Source: a virus (taxonomy: Duplodnaviria; Heunggongvirae; Uroviricota; Caudoviricetes). Taken from it: 8,413 nucleotides of DNA. The position numbers and the translations under genes were made by a program. The stretch lies in the IMG/VR virus record IMGVR_UViG_2698536535_000007, positions 1 through 8,413 of that record; one strand, given 5' to 3'. Each line of letters starts with the position of its first letter. The first letter of the stretch is position 1. Positions 1 to 8,413 of the stretch are shown piece by piece. The notes below the pieces were generated by a model. That model worked only from the letters and a program-made list of their open reading frames with translations, was not told the origin of the DNA and ran no database searches.

Positions 1-423
1 ATGGAAGAACAAGCAAACAAGATTCTCGTAGAACTACTGCAAAAAGCCAGCAATGGAATAGATGCTGCTGTCTCATTTAGCCAGGCACAGATTCCTGATG
101 TTGTTCGTCAGTTGCTAATATGGAGTTTTGTCCATAGCGCACTTTTCCAAGTGGCTGGGTTGTTGCTTTTAATTGCAGCAATGAAACTTCCTAGTTTTGC
201 AAGAACGGAAAGAAATAATGGCGAGAGATGGACGTCTTTAGATGGATGTCCAAATGATAGATATTTTATATCTTCTTTTTATTACGACATGTGCACTGTA
301 TTTGCTCCTATATTTGGCTCAATTATTGGTGTTTTAATTATTGCCTTCAATTTCGAATGGTTGAAGATTTGGCTTGCACCTAAGTTATTCCTAATCGAAT
401 ATGCAGCATCATTGGTTAAGTAA
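1..423 (+). CDS. Hypothetical small membrane protein, 140 aa; possibly 5'-truncated by the window edge; candidate superinfection-exclusion type protein
   Basis: ORF starts at base 1 so the true start cannot be verified. Two long hydrophobic stretches (VAGLLLLIAAM, FAPIFGSIIGVLIIAF) suggest transmembrane helices. Followed directly by an intrinsic terminator. The functional guess is positional only. Confidence 0.45.
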   Translation: MEEQANKILVELLQKASNGIDAAVSFSQAQIPDVVRQLLIWSFVHSALFQVAGLLLLIAAMKLPSFARTERNNGERWTSLDGCPNDRYFISSFYYDMCTVFAPIFGSIIGVLIIAFNFEWLKIWLAPKLFLIEYAASLVK

Positions 424-427
424 TTTC

Positions 428-453
428 AGGCCGCATAGTCGGCCTTTATTTTT
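428..453 (+). terminator. Rho-independent terminator
   Basis: Stem AGGCCG (428..433), loop CATAGT, stem CGGCCT (440..445), then a T-rich tail TTTATTTTT. Lies 5 nt after the stop of ORF 1..423. Confidence 0.6.
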
Positions 454-475
454 GGCATAAACAACAGAGGCTAAC

Positions 476-766
476 ATGGAATTTAAAGGTACTGAAGGTA
501 AGTGGGAAATAATGATGGATGGCGATGAGATTAAAATCATCCAGGCAGACTCACTTGAAAATGGCGCAGGCTGGCGTTCGTATATTGCAATCTGTGAGGA
601 AGTTCAATGCATTGAAGATGCCAATCTAATAGCGGCAGCACCAGACCTTTTAAATGCCATGCAAGCAATGCTAAACAAGGCATACAAGCAAAACTGGAAT
701 GACCATTATCCTGATGAAGTATCGAAAGCACAGTCAGCAATCAGCAAAGCTCTTGGGGATGAGTAA
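476..766 (+). CDS. Hypothetical phage protein, 96 aa, carrying an IAAAP-type motif shared with the Ea22-like protein
   Basis: ATG at 476 preceded by AGAGG (466..470). Motif ANLIAAAPDLLNAM resembles [18 protein letters not shown] in the 3151..3885 protein. Its stop overlaps the next start (TAATG). Confidence 0.6.
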   Translation: MEFKGTEGKWEIMMDGDEIKIIQADSLENGAGWRSYIAICEEVQCIEDANLIAAAPDLLNAMQAMLNKAYKQNWNDHYPDEVSKAQSAISKALGDE

Positions 767-954
767 TGAAAGTAAAAATAACGAAGTCGAATACCAGTTT
801 TGTTCGGCCGGGAGAGATAACAGATATCGAAACTCGCCCGCATGGAAGTCAGTTTATGTGGTCTGAATCTTGTCAACGGTACGAAAAACTATCCTGGGTA
901 ACAAACATGTGGGGTGTTGAATACGAAGAAATACCTGAAATGCATGACGAATAA
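766..954 (+). CDS. Hypothetical small protein, 62 aa
   Basis: ATG overlaps the upstream stop (TAATG), consistent with translational coupling. No recognisable motif. Confidence 0.45.
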   Translation: MKVKITKSNTSFVRPGEITDIETRPHGSQFMWSESCQRYEKLSWVTNMWGVEYEEIPEMHDE

Positions 955-959
955 GCACT

Positions 960-987
960 GTGTATTCATTCCAACGAGTGAATACAC
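960..987. promoter_or_regulatory. Perfect inverted repeat GTGTATTCA-N10-TGAATACAC; candidate operator or RNA hairpin
   Basis: Half-sites at 960..968 and 979..987 are exact reverse complements. No T-tract follows, so it is not an intrinsic terminator. Sits 6 nt after the stop of the 62-aa ORF. Confidence 0.3.
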
Positions 988-1049
988 GGAGCAATGTCGC
1001 TCGTAACTAAACAGGAGCCGACTTGTTCTGATTATTGGAAATCTTCTTT

Positions 1050-1073
1050 GCCCTCCAATGTGAGGGCTTTTTT
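1050..1073 (+). terminator. Rho-independent terminator
   Basis: Stem GCCCTC (1050..1055), loop CAATGT, stem GAGGGC (1062..1067), then TTTTTT (1068..1073). The track ORF 1035..1274 runs through this hairpin, so its 5' part is unlikely to be coding. Confidence 0.6.
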
Positions 1074-1139
1074 ATATGCATACCAATAACGCTTCACTCG
1101 AGGCGTTTTCGTTATGCAATCAAATATAAGGAGTTACCC

Positions 1140-1274
1140 ATGATGCACTTTCAGCTCGCGGGTAGCGGCGTCATGTCCGCTTTCTACCCGCACGAATCTG
1201 AATTATCACGCCGAGTTAAACAATTAATCAGAGCAGCAAAGAAACAACTGGAGGCGTTATGCGCAATGAAATAG
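1140..1274 (+). CDS. cIII: CIII-like protein (FtsH inhibitor / CII stabiliser homolog), 44 aa
   Basis: Strong SD AAGGAG (1129..1134) ahead of ATG 1140. Product MMHFQLAGSGVMSAFYPHESELSRRVKQLIRAAKKQLEAL aligns by eye with my recollection of lambda CIII (MQYAIAGWPVAGCPSESLLERITRKLRDGWKRL). Not search-verified. Confidence 0.55.
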   Translation: MMHFQLAGSGVMSAFYPHESELSRRVKQLIRAAKKQLEALCAMK

Positions 1275-1411
1275 CCATCAATCACCAGATGCTTCGTGCT
1301 GCACAGAACAAAGCAGTAATAGCCAGATTTATTGGTGATTCAAAAATGTGGCTTGAAGCAAATAAAGCGATGAAATCAGCTATCAACCTTCCGTGGTATC
1401 GCAGGAAATGA
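1259..1411 (+). CDS. kil: Kil-like small protein (host cell-division inhibitor homolog), 50 aa
   Basis: Not in the ORF track (under 60 aa). SD GGAGG (1250..1254) ahead of ATG 1259. Product MRNEIAINHQMLRAAQNKAVIARFIGDSKMWLEANKAMKSAINLPWYRRK. The segment IARFIGDSKMW resembles lambda Kil as I recall it (IATFIGDEKMF). Position directly after cIII matches lambda order. Confidence 0.5.
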   Translation: MRNEIAINHQMLRAAQNKAVIARFIGDSKMWLEANKAMKSAINLPWYRRK

Positions 1412-1578
1412 GTTTTACAGATAACTGGTCAGACGAAGAATTCATTCGTCAGATGAAAGAATTAATCGGTAACGAAGGAGATATTCATGTCACTTGCAAC
1501 CACAGTGAAGGAGAGCAAGTTACAGAGACGCATGTACACGCAGCAGGCGTTAATGTATCGCCAGAAGGGAGATCGTGA
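1408..1578 (+). CDS. Hypothetical acidic small protein, 56 aa (alternative A of two overlapping out-of-frame ORFs)
   Basis: ATG 1408 overlaps the kil-like stop (ATGA coupling) but has only a weak, close AGGA. Product MSFTDNWSDEEFIRQMKELIGNEGD... Overlaps ORF 1487..1657 in another frame for 92 nt. Confidence 0.35.
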   Translation: MSFTDNWSDEEFIRQMKELIGNEGDIHVTCNHSEGEQVTETHVHAAGVNVSPEGRS

Positions 1579-1657
1579 AGGTGTTCGCGTATTTTTAAAT
1601 GCGGCAAAGACTGAAGTATTAAATCAGCGTTATTTCCTTGGGCCATGTCCATTCTGA
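1487..1657 (+). CDS. Hypothetical basic small protein, 56 aa (alternative B; occupies the position of an accessory recombination gene before erf)
   Basis: Not in the ORF track. Strong SD AAGGAG (1474..1479), 7 nt before ATG 1487. Product MSLATTVKESKLQRRMYTQQALMYRQKGDREGVRVFLNAAKTEVLNQRYFLGPCPF. Ends 10 nt before the erf start. Confidence 0.4.
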   Translation: MSLATTVKESKLQRRMYTQQALMYRQKGDREGVRVFLNAAKTEVLNQRYFLGPCPF

Positions 1658-1667
1658 GAACAATCAT

Positions 1668-2273
1668 ATGAGCAAAGAATTTTACGCAAGACTGGCAGCT
1701 ATTCAGGAGAATCTGAACGCGCCAAAGAATCAATACAACTCATTCGGCAAATATAAATACAGAAGCTGCGAAGACATTCTTGAGGGTGTTAAGCCGTTAC
1801 TGAATGGCCTGTTTTTATCAATCAGCGATGAAGTTGTGTTGATTGGTGATCGGTATTACGTGAAAGCCACGGCAACTATTACCGATGGCGAAAACAGTCA
1901 TACGGCAACCGCTCTTGCACGAGAGGAAGAAAGCAAGAAAGGAATGGATTCTGCACAAGTTACGGGAGCTACAAGCTCTTATGCACGCAAGTATTGCCTC
2001 AATGGTTTGTTCGGCATTGATGATGCGAAAGATGCAGATACAGACGAGCATAAACATCAGCAGAACGCAGCAGCAAAGCAATCAAAACCATCACTTACAC
2101 CTGAACAGGTTCTAAAAGCATTCACTGACGCAGCAATGCAGAAAAACACCGTAGAAGAGCTTAAACAGGCGTTCGCCAAAGCGTGGAAGATGCTCGAAGG
2201 CACACCGGAGCAGCACAAAGCGCAGGACGTTTACAACATCAGACGAGACGAATTAGAAGGAGCGGCTGCTTAA
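1668..2273 (+). CDS. erf: Erf-family single-strand annealing (essential recombination function) protein, 201 aa
   Basis: Product from the internal Met (MSKEFYARLAAIQENLNAPKNQYNSFGKYKYRSCEDILEGVKPLL ... YARKYCLNGLFGIDDAKD) matches phage P22 Erf as I recall it. The track's ATG 1638 gives a 10-residue extension without an SD, so 1668 is preferred. Confidence 0.85.
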   Translation: MSKEFYARLAAIQENLNAPKNQYNSFGKYKYRSCEDILEGVKPLLNGLFLSISDEVVLIGDRYYVKATATITDGENSHTATALAREEESKKGMDSAQVTGATSSYARKYCLNGLFGIDDAKDADTDEHKHQQNAAAKQSKPSLTPEQVLKAFTDAAMQKNTVEELKQAFAKAWKMLEGTPEQHKAQDVYNIRRDELEGAAA

Positions 2274-2656
2274 TGGCACATTCGATTACTGTAAGACTAA
2301 ACAAGCCCGCAAGAGAGTTTCAGGCCGGGGAAAATATCGGATTCAACATCCGTGCTGGCGTTCAGTATTACGATCGCCAGACAAAAAAGAAAGAATGGAC
2401 AAACTACAGCGCCGTTGTATTTGCCAAGCCGGGAGCGCAAGCGGATTACTACCGTAGTGTTCTTGTTGAAGGTGGCATTGTAGAAATTACCGGAGAAAAC
2501 ATCAGGGTTGATGTTTATCATGGGCAAAATGGTCAATCAATCACTCTTGAATTACTGAATGCAAAGATTGGATTTGCAACCTCAGGAAACAGCCAACAGC
2601 AGCAAAGTAGCAATCATCAAAATCATCCTGAATACGACGATTCAATTCCCTTCTAA
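2273..2656 (+). CDS. ssb: Phage single-stranded DNA-binding protein (SSB-like, OB-fold) with conserved acidic C-terminal tail, 127 aa
   Basis: ATG overlaps the erf stop (TAATG); SD AAGGAG at 2257..2262. C-terminus ...PEYDDSIPF matches the bacterial SSB tail consensus D-F-D-D-D-I-P-F. Preceded by a Gln/Ser/Asn-rich linker. The track's 5' extension from 2183 lies inside erf and is rejected. Confidence 0.8.
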   Translation: MAHSITVRLNKPAREFQAGENIGFNIRAGVQYYDRQTKKKEWTNYSAVVFAKPGAQADYYRSVLVEGGIVEITGENIRVDVYHGQNGQSITLELLNAKIGFATSGNSQQQQSSNHQNHPEYDDSIPF

Positions 2657-2679
2657 AGTAGCAACATAAGGATTCCATT

Positions 2680-2976
2680 ATGCCAGCGCCTTTGTATGGT
2701 GCGGATGACCCGCGCCGCTGTTCCGGCAATTCCGTATCGGAGGTGCTGGATAAATTCAGAAAAAACTACGATCGAATAATGTCTCTACCGCAGGAAACGA
2801 AAGAGGAAAAGGAATTTCGCCACTGTATATGGCTTGCAGAGAAAGAAGAACGCGAGCGAATTTACCAGACATCAATCCGACCATTCCGCAAAGCCACATA
2901 TACCCACTTCCCTGAATATATCGACCCGCGCCTGCGTAATTACCGCTCACGTTATGGCGCTATCAGTAATGACTGA
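2680..2976 (+). CDS. Hypothetical phage protein, 98 aa
   Basis: SD AAGGA (2668..2672), 7 nt before ATG 2680. No recognisable motif. Confidence 0.55.
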
Positions 2977-2986
2977 GGAATTTACC

Positions 2987-3154
2987 ATGAGAGGACTTGC
3001 ATACAATCCCGGCATTCTTCCGGCAGAAATGATTATTCGCCAGCGCGTAAAGCCAATGCCATCGAGAGAGGAATTGCTTAAGAGAAATTCTTTTCCGTCA
3101 GTGAATCAAAACAAATATCTGAATGCGATGTGGCGCAAAGGAGGCAACCAGTGA
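2987..3154 (+). CDS. Hypothetical small protein, 55 aa
   Basis: SD GAGGA (2975..2979), 7 nt before ATG 2987. Stop TGA overlaps the GTG start of the next gene (GTGA). The 5' part of track ORF 2834..3154 overlaps the previous gene out of frame and is rejected. Confidence 0.45.
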
Positions 3155-3885
3155 GCAAGATTGACTATCAGGTACTGCGTGCCAAGGCAGAAAAAGCAAC
3201 GTGTGGTGTATGGTCGCTCGAATATGGAGAGAGCCGATTTGATGGTGATGATGCTCTAATTCATCGCGAGGCTGCTGGATATATTCCCATTTGCAGAATT
3301 GAAGGAGCGCATCCAGAAAGCGGTTTCGATGAAGATTTCCAAATGGAACAGCAGGCCAATGCTGAATTCATCGCCGCAGCCAATCCGGCTACCGTGCTGG
3401 CATTACTGGATGAACTGGAAAGAAACCAGCAATACATCAAACGCCGCGACCAGGAGAACGAGGATATTGCGCTAACGGTAGGGAAGATGCGTGTTGAGCT
3501 GGAAGGCAAAGACAGCAAAATAGCCAATCTTACCGCCGAACGCGATGCTCTTCGTGAAGGTGAGATGGGCGACGCTAGGCATAGCAACACACGGGCCGCA
3601 GCTGATATCTACTTCCAACTGGTCGAGGAGTGCGAAATTCCTGCTGGCGGATCTCTGGTCGAGTACGTTGACGATATGCGCGAGAAGCTGGAAGCCGCAG
3701 AGAAGCGCATTGCTGAGCTGGAGTTGCGGGAGGTTGTGCTTCCGCAATGCTATAGCATGTTGCATCGCGTCGATTTTGACGAGCCTTACCACACTGAAAT
3801 GGTTTACAGGCAGCATCAGGTTCTTGAGGCACTGCACAACGCTGGAATAAACGTCACCGAAGCAGGTAAAGGAGAGGCATCATGA
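3151..3885 (+). CDS. Ea22-like (Ead/Ea22 family) early accessory protein with central coiled-coil, 244 aa
   Basis: GTG 3151 preceded by AAGGAGG (3138..3144) at 6-nt spacing; the upstream ATG-frame start at 3130 lacks an SD. Motif [21 protein letters not shown] and heptad-like charged stretches resemble Ea22-like proteins as I recall them. Confidence 0.6.
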
Positions 3886-4415
3886 GCACTATCACAAGAG
3901 AATGGCTGCAGCAGGCTATCAACGATTATGAAAGCGTTCGTGATGAGCTTCCTTTCGGGCTTGATGATTACCAGGGGAATATCCTGGCTGCCCTGCGTAT
4001 CGCACTGGCATCGCTGGAAGCAGAGCCGGTGGCGTGGAAGGTAACATTCACGCAAATTGACCGTGAATATAACACGTTCACTGGTATGTATTCTGACAAA
4101 GCAGAAGTCGAACGGTGGGTGCGGCTGCATAAAGCATGTAATTTTCGGGCAGATATAACACCGCTTTATACCGCCAAGCCAGTGCCGGTAACTCCGGGTG
4201 GTTGGATAAGCTGTAGTGATCGAATGCCGGATAGCAAAACAGCCGTTCTTGTTGCCAGGGAGTTTGACAGGAAAGGTGACTGGCGAATGAAATGGGCGAC
4301 TTACATCCCTGGGCATCCTGACGCTAATGATGGGTGGATAATTCCTGGTGCGTCGTGGATACCATCACACTGGATGCCGCTACCAGAACCGCCGCAGGAG
4401 GTTAACCGTGGCTAA
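3882..4415 (+). CDS. Hypothetical protein with C-terminal DUF551-like domain, 177 aa
   Basis: ATG overlaps the upstream stop (ATGA). C-terminal region WISCSDRMPDSKTAVLVA ... GWIIPGASWIPSHWMPLPEPP resembles the DUF551 signature as I recall it (W...LP...VLV...W...HWMPLPEPP). Confidence 0.6.
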   Translation: MSTITREWLQQAINDYESVRDELPFGLDDYQGNILAALRIALASLEAEPVAWKVTFTQIDREYNTFTGMYSDKAEVERWVRLHKACNFRADITPLYTAKPVPVTPGGWISCSDRMPDSKTAVLVAREFDRKGDWRMKWATYIPGHPDANDGWIIPGASWIPSHWMPLPEPPQEVNRG

Positions 4416-4689
4416 CCTTCAACTTGCCGTCAAAGGTGAATACTTCGATGCCATGATTCGAGGAGAGAAAACGGAAGAGTATCGCCTGTGTAATGACTAT
4501 TGGAATAAGCGAATTATGTTCCGGGAGTATGACCGCCTGATTATCACAAAGGGATATCCGAAGCGCGACGACTCCAGTCGCAGAATTGATGTTCCGTATG
4601 GAGGATATGAAGTGAAAACAATCACACACCCCCACTTCGGTGATAAACCGGTAAAGGTATACGCGATAAAGGTGAATATCAATTGCTAA
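4408..4689 (+). CDS. ASCH-domain (PUA-like fold) protein, 93 aa
   Basis: GTG 4408 preceded by GGAGG (4397..4401) at 6-nt spacing; overlaps the DUF551 gene end by 8 nt. Contains the ASCH signature GxKxxExR (IRGEKTEEYR). Confidence 0.6.
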   Translation: MANLQLAVKGEYFDAMIRGEKTEEYRLCNDYWNKRIMFREYDRLIITKGYPKRDDSSRRIDVPYGGYEVKTITHPHFGDKPVKVYAIKVNINC

Positions 4690-4713
4690 ATTAGTAGCAT
4701 AGCATAAAGATGC

Positions 4714-4738
4714 TTGCATTAATGAAGTGTGTATAATA
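4714..4738 (+). promoter_or_regulatory. Candidate sigma70-type promoter for the downstream small ORF
   Basis: TATAAT at 4732..4737 preceded by TGTG. A TTGCAT -35-like hexamer at 4714..4719 is too close (12-nt spacer), so the call rests mainly on the -10 and the AT-rich context. Confidence 0.3.
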
Positions 4739-4800
4739 ACGCCTCATCAATAGTAAACTACTGAAATAGCAAAAAATGCATATTAAAGAGGATTCGAAAA

Positions 4801-4992
4801 TTGAAAATGTTCATGCAAATAGACAGACGCATAGATATTAATGGCAATTCATACTTAGTTAGATGCGAAGAGAGGCCTAACGGTGAGTGGCGTGTATATG
4901 ATATTGACCGTAAGATCAATATCAGCACCATGAACAAAGACACTGCCTTTGATGAATGGAAAGCTGAAGCTAAAAAACAACATAATTCGTAG
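4801..4992 (+). CDS. Hypothetical small protein in an AT-rich moron-like unit, 61-63 aa
   Basis: Preceded by GAGG (4788..4791). Start is ambiguous between TTG 4801 and ATG 4807. Flanked by a promoter-like element upstream and a terminator downstream. Visibly lower G+C than neighbouring genes. Confidence 0.5.
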   Translation: MKMFMQIDRRIDINGNSYLVRCEERPNGEWRVYDIDRKINISTMNKDTAFDEWKAEAKKQHNS

Positions 4993-5035
4993 AATTACAA
5001 AAACCCTAACCAATTGATGGATTTCTTTTATCTGA

Positions 5036-5059
5036 ACTCGCTACGGCGAGTTTTGTTTT
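5036..5059 (+). terminator. Rho-independent terminator
   Basis: Stem ACTCGC (5036..5041), loop TACG, stem GCGAGT (5046..5051), then TTTTGTTTT. Confidence 0.5.
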
Positions 5060-5072
5060 ATGGAGATGATAA

Positions 5073-5240
5073 ATGCACTTTCGAGTCACAGGTGAATGGA
5101 ATGGAGAACAATTCAACAGAGTTATCGAAGCAGAGAACATCAATGACTGCTATGACCACTGGATGATATGGGCGCAGATAGCCCATGCAGACGTAACCAA
5201 TATTCGAATTGAAGAACTGAAAGAACACCAAGCCGCCTGA
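5073..5240 (+). CDS. Hypothetical small protein, 55 aa
   Basis: Not in the ORF track. SD GGAGA (5062..5066), 6 nt before ATG 5073. Product MHFRVTGEWNGEQFNRVIEAENINDCYDHWMIWAQIAHADVTNIRIEELKEHQAA. Confidence 0.45.
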   Translation: MHFRVTGEWNGEQFNRVIEAENINDCYDHWMIWAQIAHADVTNIRIEELKEHQAA

Positions 5241-5252
5241 TGGCGGTTTTTT
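5232..5252 (+). terminator. Short rho-independent terminator overlapping the stop codon of ORF 5073..5240
   Basis: Stem GCCGCC (5232..5237), loop TGAT, stem GGCGGT (5242..5247, one G-U pair), then TTTTTT. Confidence 0.4.
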
Positions 5253-5266
5253 ATTGGAGACAAGAA

Positions 5267-5611
5267 ATGTCAGATTTGGCTATGAAGGTTTTGAAATGGC
5301 AATCAACTGGCGATGTTAGCATCAGTAGCGCAACTCTTGCCTCAATCGCATGTGGACTGAAAAAGAATATCTATTGTCATCACTTCGGCGCTCCCCATGA
5401 CGCAGCCGATTTCAGACGATGCGTTGCACTTGTTGAGCAGATTCCAGAAATCAGAGATTCATTCAACAAGGTTGCAAAGCGCGTTCCGGCATTCAAAGGA
5501 ATCCTCAACGAATGGGATTCCCTCGTTGCTCTGTTGAAGTCTGAAATGAAGATACACGGAAACAAAGCACCAGAGACTTACAGAAGAATCAGAGAGCTAC
5601 GCAAGGACTAA
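5267..5611 (+). CDS. Hypothetical Cys/His-rich protein (possible zinc-binding), 114 aa, directly upstream of xis
   Basis: SD GGAGA (5256..5260), 6 nt before ATG 5267. The track's start at 5240 lies in the terminator T-tract and is rejected. Cluster C29-x7-C37-H38-H39-x4-H44-x7-C52 could bind a metal. Confidence 0.55.
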   Translation: MSDLAMKVLKWQSTGDVSISSATLASIACGLKKNIYCHHFGAPHDAADFRRCVALVEQIPEIRDSFNKVAKRVPAFKGILNEWDSLVALLKSEMKIHGNKAPETYRRIRELRKD

Positions 5612-5680
5612 CCATGAAATAACACCGCCTCACACTCGATGAGGCCTGTTCATTGCTCAATGATATCCAGACCTACCATC

Positions 5681-5701
5681 GCCGCATCAATGCGGCTTTT
5701 T
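5681..5701 (+). terminator. Rho-independent terminator upstream of xis
   Basis: Stem GCCGCA (5681..5686), loop TCAA, stem TGCGGC (5691..5696), then TTTTT (5697..5701). Confidence 0.5.
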
Positions 5702-5702
5702 C

Positions 5703-5716
5703 TTGCGTGTAATTGC
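5703..5716 (+). promoter_or_regulatory. CII-binding site (TTGC-N6-TTGC) of the pI integrase promoter
   Basis: TTGCGTGTAATTGC lies just upstream of the xis ATG, matching lambda pI, whose transcript starts inside xis so that Int is made without Xis during establishment of lysogeny. Confidence 0.6.
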
Positions 5717-5728
5717 GGAGACTTTGCG

Positions 5729-5947
5729 ATGTACTTGACACTTCAGGAGTGGAACGCACGCCAGCGACGCCCAAGAAGCCTTGAAACAGTTCGTCGATGG
5801 GTACGCGAGTGCAGGATATTCCCTCCTCCGGTTAAGGATGGAAGAGAGTATCTGTTCCACGAATCAGCGGTAAAGGTTGACTTAAATCGACCAGTAACAG
5901 GTAGCCTTTTGAAGAGGATCAAAAATGGGAAGAAGGCGAAGTCATGA
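5729..5947 (+). CDS. xis: Excisionase Xis, 72 aa
   Basis: Product MYLTLQEWNARQRRPRSLETVRRWVRECRIFPPPVKDGREYLFHESAVKVDLNRP... matches lambda Xis as I recall it. Track ORF 5639..5947 is an in-frame 5' extension across the terminator and pI site and is rejected. Confidence 0.93.
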   Translation: MYLTLQEWNARQRRPRSLETVRRWVRECRIFPPPVKDGREYLFHESAVKVDLNRPVTGSLLKRIKNGKKAKS

Positions 5948-6995
5948 GCGCCGGGATTTACCCCCTAATCTTTATATAAGAAACAATGGATATTACTGCT
6001 ACAGGGACCCAAGGACGGGTAAAGAGTTTGGATTAGGCCGAGACAGGAGGATAGCAATCACTGAAGCTATACAGGCCAACATTGAGTTATTTTCAGGACA
6101 CAAGCACAAGCCTCTGACAGCGAGAATCAACAGTGATAATTCTGTTACGTTACATTCATGGCTTGATCGCTACGAAAAAATCCTGGCCAGCAGAGGAATC
6201 AAGCAGAAGACACTCATAAATTACATGAGCAAAATTAAAGCAATAAGGAGGGGTCTGCCTGATGCTCCACTTGAAGACATCACCACAAAAGAAATTGCGG
6301 CAATGCTCAATGGATACATAGACGAGGGCAAGGCGGCGTCAGCCAAGTTAATCAGATCAACACTGAGCGATGCATTCCGAGAGGCAATAGCTGAAGGCCA
6401 TATAACAACAAACCCGGTCGCTGCCACTCGCGCAGCAAAATCAGAGGTAAGGAGATCAAGACTTACGGCTGACGAATACCTGAAAATTTATCAAGCAGCA
6501 GAATCATCACCATGTTGGCTCAGACTTGCAATGGAACTGGCTGTTGTTACCGGGCAGCGAGTTGGTGATTTATGCGAAATGAAGTGGTCTGATATCGTAG
6601 ATGGGTATCTTTATGTCGAGCAAAGCAAAACAGGCGTAAAAATTGCCATCCCTACAACATTGCATGTTGATGCTCTCGGGATATCAATGAAGGAAACACT
6701 TGATAAATGCAAAGAGATTCTTGGCGGAGAAACCATAATTGCATCTACTCGTCGTGAACCGCTTTCATCCGGCACAGTATCAAGGTATTTTATGCGCGCA
6801 CGAAAAGCATCAGGTCTTTCCTTCGAAGGGGATCCGCCTACCTTTCACGAGTTGCGCAGTTTGTCTGCAAGACTCTATGAGAAGCAGATAAGCGATAAGT
6901 TTGCTCAACATCTTCTCGGGCATAAGTCGGACACCATGGCATCACAGTATCGTGATGACAGAGGCAGGGAGTGGGACAAAATTGAAATCAAATAA
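5925..6995 (+). CDS. int: Tyrosine site-specific integrase Int (lambda-type), 356 aa
   Basis: Product MGRRRSHERRDLPPNLYIRNNGYYCYRDPRTGKEFGLGRDRR... is near-identical to lambda Int as I recall it. Catalytic R (VTGQRVGD), H-x-x-R (HELRSLSARLY) and H...Y (LLGHKSDTMASQY) are present. SD GAGGA (5914..5918). Start overlaps the xis end by 23 nt, as in lambda. Confidence 0.96.
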   Translation: MGRRRSHERRDLPPNLYIRNNGYYCYRDPRTGKEFGLGRDRRIAITEAIQANIELFSGHKHKPLTARINSDNSVTLHSWLDRYEKILASRGIKQKTLINYMSKIKAIRRGLPDAPLEDITTKEIAAMLNGYIDEGKAASAKLIRSTLSDAFREAIAEGHITTNPVAATRAAKSEVRRSRLTADEYLKIYQAAESSPCWLRLAMELAVVTGQRVGDLCEMKWSDIVDGYLYVEQSKTGVKIAIPTTLHVDALGISMKETLDKCKEILGGETIIASTRREPLSSGTVSRYFMRARKASGLSFEGDPPTFHELRSLSARLYEKQISDKFAQHLLGHKSDTMASQYRDDRGREWDKIEIK

Positions 6996-7083
6996 TGATT
7001 TTATTTTGACTGATAGTGACCTGTTCGTTGCAACAAATTGATAAGCAATGCTTTTTTATAATGCCAACTTAGTATAAAAAAGC
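6996..7083. other. attL: lambda attP P' arm (Int arm-type and IHF sites) plus 15-bp core
   Basis: The region is the reverse complement of the lambda attP P' arm and core (GCTTTTTTATACTAAGTTGGCATTATAAAAAAGCATTGCTTATCAATTTGTTGCAACGAACAGGTCACTATCAGTCAAAATAAAATCATTATTTG). Core TTAGTATAAAAAAGC is at 7069..7083. Flanking host bases (AGGC...) match the attB B arm. Confidence 0.88.
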
Positions 7084-7129
7084 AGGCTTCAACGGATTCA
7101 TTTTTCTATTTCATAGCCCGGAGCAACCT

Positions 7130-8413
7130 GTGAACACATTTTCAGTTTCCCGTCTGGCGCTGGCATTGGCTTTTGGCGTGACGCTGACCGCCTGTAGCTC
7201 AACCCCGCCCGATCAACGTCCTTCTGATCAAACCGCGCCTGGTACCTCTTCTCGCCCGATTCTGTCGGCAAAAGAAGCGCAGAATTTCGATGCTCAACAC
7301 TATTTTGCATCCCTGACACCAGGTGCTGCAGCGTGGAATCCTTCCCCGATTACCCTGCCTGCGCAACCTGACTTTGTTGTCGGCCCGGCGGGCACTCAAG
7401 GTGTAACGCATACCACGATTCAGGCGGCGGTAGATGCGGCAATTATCAAGCGTACCAACAAGCGCCAGTATATTGCCGTGATGCCTGGTGAGTATCAGGG
7501 AACGGTATATGTCCCTGCCGCTCCGGGTGGAATTACTCTGTACGGTACAGGTGAAAAACCGATTGATGTGAAGATTGGGCTTTCCCTTGATGGTGGCATG
7601 AGCCCTGCCGACTGGCGTCACGACGTCAACCCGCGCGGCAAATATATGCCAGGTAAACCAGCGTGGTATATGTACGATAGCTGCCAGAGCAAACGCAGCG
7701 ACAGTATCGGTGTTCTCTGCTCTGCGGTCTTCTGGTCACAAAACAATGGCCTGCAACTGCAAAATCTGACCATCGAAAACACGCTGGGCGATAGCGTAGA
7801 TGCAGGTAACCATCCGGCGGTGGCACTGCGTACTGATGGTGACCAGGTACAGATTAACAACGTTAACATTCTCGGTCGTCAGAACACCTTCTTTGTCACC
7901 AACAGCGGTGTGCAGAACCGTCTGGAAACGAATCGTCAGCCGCGTACGCTGGTGACCAACAGCTACATTGAAGGGGATGTGGATATCGTTTCTGGTCGCG
8001 GCGCAGTGGTGTTCGATAACACCGAATTCCGCGTGGTGAACTCACGTACTCAGCAAGAAGCGTATGTGTTTGCACCGGCTACGCTGTCCAACATTTACTA
8101 CGGTTTCCTCGCCGTAAACAGCCGTTTCAATGCTTTCGGTGATGGTGTGGCGCAACTGGGCCGCTCGCTGGATGTTGATGCCAATACCAACGGTCAGGTG
8201 GTGATCCGTGATAGCGCCATCAACGAAGGTTTTAACACGGCTAAACCGTGGGCCGATGCGGTGATCTCTAATCGTCCGTTTGCGGGTAATACCGGCAGCG
8301 TAGATGATAACGACGAAATACAGCGCAATCTGAATGACACTAACTACAACCGCATGTGGGAATACAATAACCGCGGCGTGGGTAGTAAAGTGGTTGCAGA
8401 GGCGAAGAAGTAA
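7130..8413 (+). CDS. ybhC: Host lipoprotein YbhC (pectin methylesterase-family fold), complete, 427 aa
   Basis: GTG start with SD GGAG (7120..7123). Lipoprotein signal MNTFSVSRLALALAFGVTLTAC with lipobox LTAC. Recognised as E. coli ybhC, the gene flanking attB-lambda on the gal side. Stop TAA is the last codon of the window. Confidence 0.9.
   Translation: MNTFSVSRLALALAFGVTLTACSSTPPDQRPSDQTAPGTSSRPILSAKEAQNFDAQHYFASLTPGAAAWNPSPITLPAQPDFVVGPAGTQGVTHTTIQAAVDAAIIKRTNKRQYIAVMPGEYQGTVYVPAAPGGITLYGTGEKPIDVKIGLSLDGGMSPADWRHDVNPRGKYMPGKPAWYMYDSCQSKRSDSIGVLCSAVFWSQNNGLQLQNLTIENTLGDSVDAGNHPAVALRTDGDQVQINNVNILGRQNTFFVTNSGVQNRLETNRQPRTLVTNSYIEGDVDIVSGRGAVVFDNTEFRVVNSRTQQEAYVFAPATLSNIYYGFLAVNSRFNAFGDGVAQLGRSLDVDANTNGQVVIRDSAINEGFNTAKPWADAVISNRPFAGNTGSVDDNDEIQRNLNDTNYNRMWEYNNRGVGSKVVAEAKK

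Follow-up and report, generated by a model that had tools for sequence, protein, structure and literature searches.

Lambdoid phages are mosaics, with recombination joints at gene or domain borders. Phages HK022 (genes 35/34), 933W (L0065/L0064) and VT2-Sakai (H0075/H0074) have, between abc2 and xis-int, an Ea22-like gene, a DUF551 gene and a gene for a 94 amino acid (aa) protein, in this order and with an 8-nt overlap. In these phages the DUF551 gene is called "homolog of P22 EaA C-terminal half". The same arrangement was found in the DNA analysed here, positions 1 to 8,413 of the IMG/VR virus record IMGVR_UViG_2698536535_000007 (Caudoviricetes), hereafter the window (8,413 nt). Its DUF551 gene overlaps a downstream gene for a 93-aa protein with a predicted ASCH fold. 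We consider it likely that the two are separable accessory genes, which became mosaic neighbours in the exo-xis (P22 "ea") region of an HK022/P22-like lambdoid prophage.

Relatives have been described for both proteins. DUF551 is discussed as a portable C-terminal domain on variable N-terminal modules, in variant 2 of Ea22 (Ea22_V2) from Shiga-toxin phages (PMC10834534) and in YfdS of CPS-53. The 933W protein L0065 was described as the split-off C-terminal domain of Ea22 (PMC8614690). The phenotypes reported are pro-lysogenic for Ea22 and peroxide tolerance for YfdS. For the 93-aa protein, the closest family is ASCH (PF04266), with PDB entry 3iuw, PH0355 (2z0t), Escherichia coli YqfB, ZmASCH, human EOLA1 and TRIP4 as members.

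A first-pass annotation of the window, made from the sequence alone, had taken the overlap of the two genes and a GGAGG placed for re-initiation as marks of a functional pair. Both features were confirmed. The overlap on the + strand is GTGGCTAA (4408–4415), and the Shine-Dalgarno (SD) sequence GGAGG (4397–4401) lies inside the upstream coding sequence, with a 6-nt spacer to the GTG start (4408–4410). The TAA of the upstream gene (4413–4415) falls in another frame within ASCH codons 2–3 (GCT AAC), and ends whichever gene is upstream. The GTG start is supported by an identical RefSeq start in relatives, and by an ATG or GTG at the same position in relatives despite wholly different upstream sequences. 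With a stop/start overlap and an internal SD, the layout is a translationally coupled one.

The meaning given to these features did not hold. We aligned the 60 nt 5' of the ASCH start across related loci. The ASCH start overlapped the upstream stop in 77 of 81 loci (49 by 8 nt, 28 by 1 nt), with any upstream gene. The 21-mer CAGGAGGTTAACC(G/A)TGGCTAA recurred behind unrelated upstream genes (loci L004, L006, L027, L077, L079 and others), and the similarity between loci stopped 11–16 nt before the ASCH start codon. The unrelated upstream proteins had a common C-terminal tail, Q-E-V-N-R-G. Among them were DUF551 proteins of many subtypes, a Lar-like restriction-alleviation zinc-finger protein, a dATP/dGTP pyrophosphohydrolase and three unknowns. 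Variant SD/start junctions, with overlaps of 8 nt or 1 nt, were found behind DUF4752, a TraR/DksA-type zinc finger and one unknown family. In distant ASCH relatives from Kluyvera, Brucella and Ignavibacteria, the overlaps with unrelated genes were of 4 nt. This shows that the junction cassette, CAGGAGGTTAACCGTGGCTAA in the window, is the ASCH gene's own translation-initiation region and travels with ASCH. Because the recombination joints fall just 5' of the cassette, any gene that lands upstream ends in identical codons and overlaps ASCH by the same 8 nt. The cassette neatly illustrates a mosaic joint immediately 5' of a ribosome-binding site.

Overlaps were also general in the operon. They measured 4 nt at 3151/3154 and at 3882/3885 (ATGA, where the Ea22-like and DUF551 genes adjoin), 1 nt at 766, 2273 and 5240, and 23 nt between xis and int. 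Four consecutive open reading frames (ORFs; 2988–4689) were chained by stop/start overlaps, with an SD before each start. Since overlap and SD are common throughout the operon, they are no mark of partnership between two particular genes.

The pair would be read from the early leftward operon as part of an early polycistronic transcript, judging from the gene order and the literature cited here. Ribosomes ending on one gene may re-initiate on the next through the chained overlaps, and those ending on any gene upstream of ASCH would re-initiate at its GTG. In this way the ASCH cassette would be expressed wherever recombination drops it. We looked for an internal promoter or terminator between the DUF551 and ASCH genes and found none; terminator-like hairpins were present only downstream of the pair (5034–5053 and 5230–5249).

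A programmed frameshift fusion of DUF551 and ASCH was rejected, no slippery heptamer being seen at 4380–4412. The open frame of ASCH extends back to 4348, and in two database proteins (P0121 and P0122) it continues through "NRRRRLTV" into ASCH. The N-terminal parts of these two, a zinc-ribbon protein and an Ea22 fragment, bear no relation to DUF551, and we regard both proteins as gene-call or deletion artefacts.

The adjacency of DUF551 and ASCH was frequent, far from obligate. Among 80 loci found with the window ASCH protein as seed, DUF551 was immediately upstream in 27, only elsewhere in the locus in 29 and absent in 24. A second set of 80 ASCH-seeded loci had DUF551 immediately upstream in 19, downstream in 3, elsewhere in 37 and absent in 21. 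Seeding with the DUF551 domain gave 79 usable loci, with ASCH as the next gene in 14 (about 18%). The ASCH gene itself was found in 1477 of 5426 complete E. coli genomes (about 27%) and in 332 phage records, Shiga-toxin phages among them. The junction between DUF551 tail and ASCH head was covered to at least 80% in 538 of the E. coli genomes, about 37% of the ASCH-positive ones (base for this share, 1457 genomes).

Of eleven loci across other species, DUF551 was nearby in a single one, from Escherichia. By a hidden Markov model (HMM) scan and inspection of neighbouring ORFs, DUF551 was not found near ASCH in Kluyvera, Pseudomonas, Rhizobiaceae, Brucella, Polaromonas and Ignavibacteria, within flanks of up to 4 kb that were much shorter in three loci. 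The constant co-occurrence and adjacency across related and distant genomes that define a conserved gene pair were not observed.

Three phage loci found with the DUF551 seed (L103, L109 and L125, about 3211–3290) kept the cassette and an 11-codon ASCH stub (MANLQLAVKGE-stop), corresponding to 4408–4442 in the window. After the stub, their sequence rejoined the window at about 5015, with the rest of ASCH and an AT-rich ORF gone. They are natural ASCH deletions with DUF551 retained.

The DUF551 gene showed mosaicism inside its own reading frame. As called by the first-pass annotation, the domain is DUF551: PF04448 matched over its full length with an E-value of 1.3e-20 and 74.4 bits, against a cut-off of 22, and was present in all 120 listed homologues. 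The family is large, with more than 7000 homologous clusters. The DNA similarity to HK022 and 933W began at base 304 of the gene (window 4185), in a PVTPGGW linker that separates the domain from an N-terminal module. The identity to HK022 was 94% over 4185–4680, and HK022 gene 35, with only 121 aa, differed from the window protein in its N-terminal half. The exact combination of the window gene, over at least 80% of its length, was found in only 2 of the 5426 E. coli genomes. Linker and DUF551 domain were also joined to other N-terminal modules, for example a MazG-like dATP/dGTP pyrophosphohydrolase. The breaks at the linker and 11–16 nt before the ASCH start fit the mosaicism at module boundaries of lambdoid phages. 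The window junction is textbook mosaicism at single-cassette resolution, nothing unusual.

A "PVTPDGW" linker and the "RIALASLEAEP" segment recurred between differing domains of EaA/DUF551-type proteins (P0309, P0344, P0345, P0355 and P0366; loci L009–L015), among them dATP/dGTP pyrophosphohydrolase-DUF551 fusions with ASCH as the next gene. From their sequences, both segments appear to behave as intragenic recombination joints.

If DUF551 has a partner, the upstream Ea22-like protein is probably a better candidate than ASCH, because PHROG 60 spans both of these genes and because of the literature on L0065 and Ea22 variant 2. In this profile, the Ea22-like protein aligned to positions 1–144 and the DUF551 protein to positions 116–284. 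The DUF551 gene may thus be the detached C-terminal module of an Ea22-type multidomain protein. In the window, unlike in Ea22 variant 2, the domain forms a protein of its own together with an N-terminal module. The first-pass annotation had named no described role for either protein in lambda-like phages; no demonstrated role is known for them, and the remark is slightly out of date only for the context of DUF551, given its discussion in Ea22 variants and YfdS. The structure model of the DUF551 protein was too poor for a fold search, with a predicted local distance difference test (pLDDT) score of 68.5 and about 55 in the DUF551 domain. By sequence search, no PDB relative of the protein was found.

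The AlphaFold model of the 93-aa protein was confident (pLDDT 92; predicted template modelling score 0.80), with the topology b1-a1-b2-a2-b3-b6. The 16 best Foldseek matches in the PDB were all ASCH proteins, with weak E-values (0.06–0.5), and viral structure matches included DUF3850 and ASCH phage proteins. The GxKxxExR motif was found as G19-E-K21-T-E-E24-Y-R26 (encoded at 4462–4485), at the junction of helix 1 and strand 2. Both the motif and its canonical position, lining the cavity, have been defined before (PMC6803910), and the residue numbering is identical to that of EOLA1 and YqfB. To assess conservation, we aligned 41 relatives (40–76% identical) drawn from 746 representative clusters. 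K21 was invariant, and G19, E24 and R26 were at least 90% conserved. Other conserved motifs of the family were W32, R35, GYP (49–51) and THxHFG (73–78). With 627 clusters, this ASCH subfamily is far smaller than the DUF551 family.

Sequence searches were less clear. PF04266 scored 15.7 bits (E-value 0.024), below the Pfam gathering threshold of 21.2. Only 4 of the 41 diverse relatives matched PF04266 with an E-value below 0.01, and 2 matched the related DUF3850. The NCBIfam search with the 93-aa protein gave no match, and phmmer and profile searches against PDB sequences found no ASCH chain. The ASCH call of the first-pass annotation, which had proposed an HMM search as a check, thus rests on structure and motif, because confirmation from sequence failed or was marginal. 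On the predicted model we accept the ASCH fold, the name also used by RefSeq, although the Pfam threshold was not reached.

The protein appears to be an ASCH domain of minimal size, its GxKxxExR pocket intact, and would act on its own. The helical inserts present in YqfB and ZmASCH are missing from it. As modelled, the K21/E24/R26 pocket could hold a nucleobase-containing ligand or single-stranded RNA (ssRNA), and the conserved aromatics Y12/F13, W32, Y50 and F77, together with H74, may contribute to it. The protein is probably a small binder or hydrolase with a nucleobase pocket. Most likely it would bind, and possibly hydrolyse, a nucleobase, nucleoside, nucleotide or ssRNA early in infection or induction. 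Our literature searches turned up no experiments on this subfamily of phage ASCH proteins.

One metagenomic protein (P0183, 364 aa) combined a reverse-transcriptase-like segment (sub-threshold RVT_1) with a partial ASCH of the same subfamily. This lone example may result from a faulty assembly or gene call; the other long ASCH-containing representatives had no informative domain fusions. A 168-aa protein in BFVD (A0A8S5UN54, "Restriction alleviation protein") aligned structurally to the ASCH model over 93 columns with an E-value of 9e-6, and may be a Lar-ASCH fusion. Lar-like genes were located directly 5' of ASCH in L004, L006 and L044.

One alternative is that the 93-aa protein is a ZmASCH-like ssRNA nuclease or RNA binder, modulating host or phage transcripts and thereby the lysis-lysogeny balance, an effect that has been proposed for other proteins of the exo-xis region. 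The ASCH superfamily was first predicted to bind RNA (Iyer 2006, as reported in a citing paper), and exo-xis genes influence developmental decisions (PMC10834534). A prophage ASCH protein was reported to be essential in Dickeya by transposon sequencing, and was called an endoribonuclease by annotation only, but it is not tied to the subfamily of the 93-aa protein. ZmASCH has 143 aa and extra elements, whereas the 93-aa protein aligned better with the minimal ASCH structures 3iuw and 2z0t. We hold this function to be unlikely, if the best placed of the alternatives.

The first-pass annotation had suggested a candidate modification sensor or anti-defence module. As a dedicated two-protein module, DUF551 would be the adaptor, ASCH would read a modified base or RNA, and translational coupling would keep the two at a fixed ratio. 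Several observations speak for this module and weigh against separable genes. Co-translation of the two genes is likely from the overlap and the SD site, and the pair recurred in HK022, 933W, VT2-Sakai and many E. coli prophages. DUF551 was the most common single upstream neighbour of ASCH, and was adjacent in roughly 40–50% of the loci holding it. This is more than random placement would give, with shared block ancestry uncorrected, and the adjacency may be somewhat enriched over random. Anti-restriction-type genes were nearby (Abc2, Lar-like and the MazG-like pyrophosphohydrolase). In Jerseyvirus (lytic Salmonella siphophages) the order was reversed, with ASCH followed by a 69-aa DUF551 protein in three of five loci and an overlap of 4 nt (e.g., L174, Salmonella phage Kenya-K56, 2501–2982; also L176–L178). 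By eye, this DUF551 protein is closely similar to the window domain, being of the same subtype; some Jerseyviruses had no DUF551 gene (ZCSE9, L179, L180). Genes that adjoin in either order are classically suspected of a functional link, and we allow a small chance that a loose one exists.

Against a dedicated module, the cassette was common to unrelated upstream genes. Between 63 and 76% of the ASCH genes had no adjacent DUF551, and about 82% of the sampled DUF551 genes had no adjacent ASCH. DUF551 was missing from the flanks examined in distant genera, and it was kept in the ASCH-deleted phages. No DUF551-ASCH fusion was present among the long representatives inspected, and neither protein matched the PADLOC defence models at an E-value of 0.01 or less. 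The co-occurrence analysis that had been proposed as a check thus went against the module, with the Jerseyvirus order as the point in its favour, and the sensor or anti-defence role was not borne out. We judge such a module quite improbable.

An equally doubtful proposal is a YqfB/EOLA1-type N4-acetylcytidine (ac4C; N4-acyl-cytosine) amidohydrolase, serving nucleoside salvage or remodelling by the phage. K21 and R26 are in register with the YqfB motif, and YqfB catalysis was located at the conserved octapeptide (PMC9599836). EOLA1, which has the canonical E24 version of the motif, is reported in a 2026 preprint to deacetylate free ac4C. Of the YqfB-type catalytic set (Lys21, Thr24, Glu74, plus Arg26), however, the 93-aa protein has only K21 and R26, the Thr nucleophile at position 24 being replaced by Glu. 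From reading the sequences, the helical segment with Glu74 of YqfB has no counterpart in the shorter 93-aa protein, in which H74 lies in a different loop, the conserved T-H74-x-H-F-G. The hhalign match of the 93-aa family to YqfB was not significant (E-value 0.17, 16 columns, motif region only), and it is not obvious why a temperate phage would need to salvage ac4C. By the catalytic triad, read from the sequence, the protein is not a YqfB-type amidohydrolase.

The least probable reading makes the minimal phage ASCH a counter-defence or host-takeover factor. Its ligand, captured or hydrolysed, would be a nucleoside or nucleotide carrying a modification: an N4-acylated cytosine, for instance, or a danger signal of the methylated dNMP type that PUA-domain immune proteins sense. 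DUF551 would then be a loosely associated adaptor, a role that would account for the two genes adjoining in either order, in lambdoid phages and in Jerseyviruses.

The setting of the pair fits two separable accessory genes in an exo-xis region. The pair sits between the recombination genes (erf, abc2) and xis-int (Table 1), as genes 35 and 34 do in HK022. The prophage ends at the classical attachment site of lambda, as marked by a lambda attachment (att) core between int and ybhC.

Table 1 Features of the window, with the junction cassette and the modules of the DUF551 gene.
Feature	Position	Strand	Details
Early leftward (pL-type) operon of lambdoid prophage	window	+	
Kil-like ORF			First in listed order; name tentative, taken from RefSeq label at same position in related prophage L173
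Erf	1638–2273	+	PF04404
SSB/Abc1-analogue	2273–2656	+	
Abc2 anti-RecBCD	2680–2976	+	PF11043
55-aa ORF	2988–3154	+	TGA stop 3152–3154
Ead/Ea22-like gene	3151–3885	+	PF13935, E-value 2.2e-29; RefSeq label "ead/Ea22-like family protein" in relatives
DUF551 gene	3882–4415	+	ATG 3882, TAA 4413–4415, 177 aa
N-terminal module of DUF551 gene	3882 to about 4180		Carries "RIALASLEAEP" segment; PHROGs 5117, 660, 3323
Linker PVTPGGW	about 4183–4203		Coincides with mosaic joint
DUF551 domain proper	4200–4397		Residues 107–172
Junction cassette	4395–4415	+	CAGGAGGTTAACCGTGGCTAA
ASCH-fold gene	4408–4689	+	GTG 4408, TAA 4687–4689, 93 aa; predicted standalone PUA-like beta-barrel
Three small ORFs	between 93-aa gene and xis	+	
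xis and int	5732–6995	+	
Lambda att core	7069–7083	-	GCTTTTTTATACTAA, exact; between int end (6995) and ybhC start (7130)
Host gene ybhC	7130 onward		

The probable start of the Ea22-like gene is GTG 3151 (MSKIDYQ..., as in relatives), and not GTG 3130 of the mechanical ORF list. Upstream of GTG 3151 there was a GGAGG (3140–3144) with a 6-nt spacer, and the GTG overlaps the stop codon of the 55-aa ORF.

Downstream of the pair, the GC content dropped to 35–40% in 4690–5250, compared with about 50% upstream. This stretch contained small ORFs at 4801–4992 (PHROG 16329) and 5073–5240 (PHROG 676), and looks like a separately acquired, moron-like insert. Two long antisense ORFs on the - strand ran across the pair (3816–4316, 166 aa; 4402–4719, 105 aa). 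We found no sign of them being genes; the + strand genes have strong family matches.

As it stands, the pair matters little. Both genes are already known: RefSeq has names for them, and HK022 and 933W, sequenced long ago, carry the same pair. The junction carries a caution. In lambdoid early operons, two genes cannot be taken for partners from an overlap and an SD site, because mosaic recombination moves the initiation cassette together with the downstream gene. What value remains is in the biochemistry of a phage ASCH protein that is very common. Given its presence in about a quarter of the complete E. coli genomes and in hundreds of phage records, a biochemical assignment would annotate very common phage "dark matter", and could link the biology of nucleotide or RNA modification with the exo-xis region.

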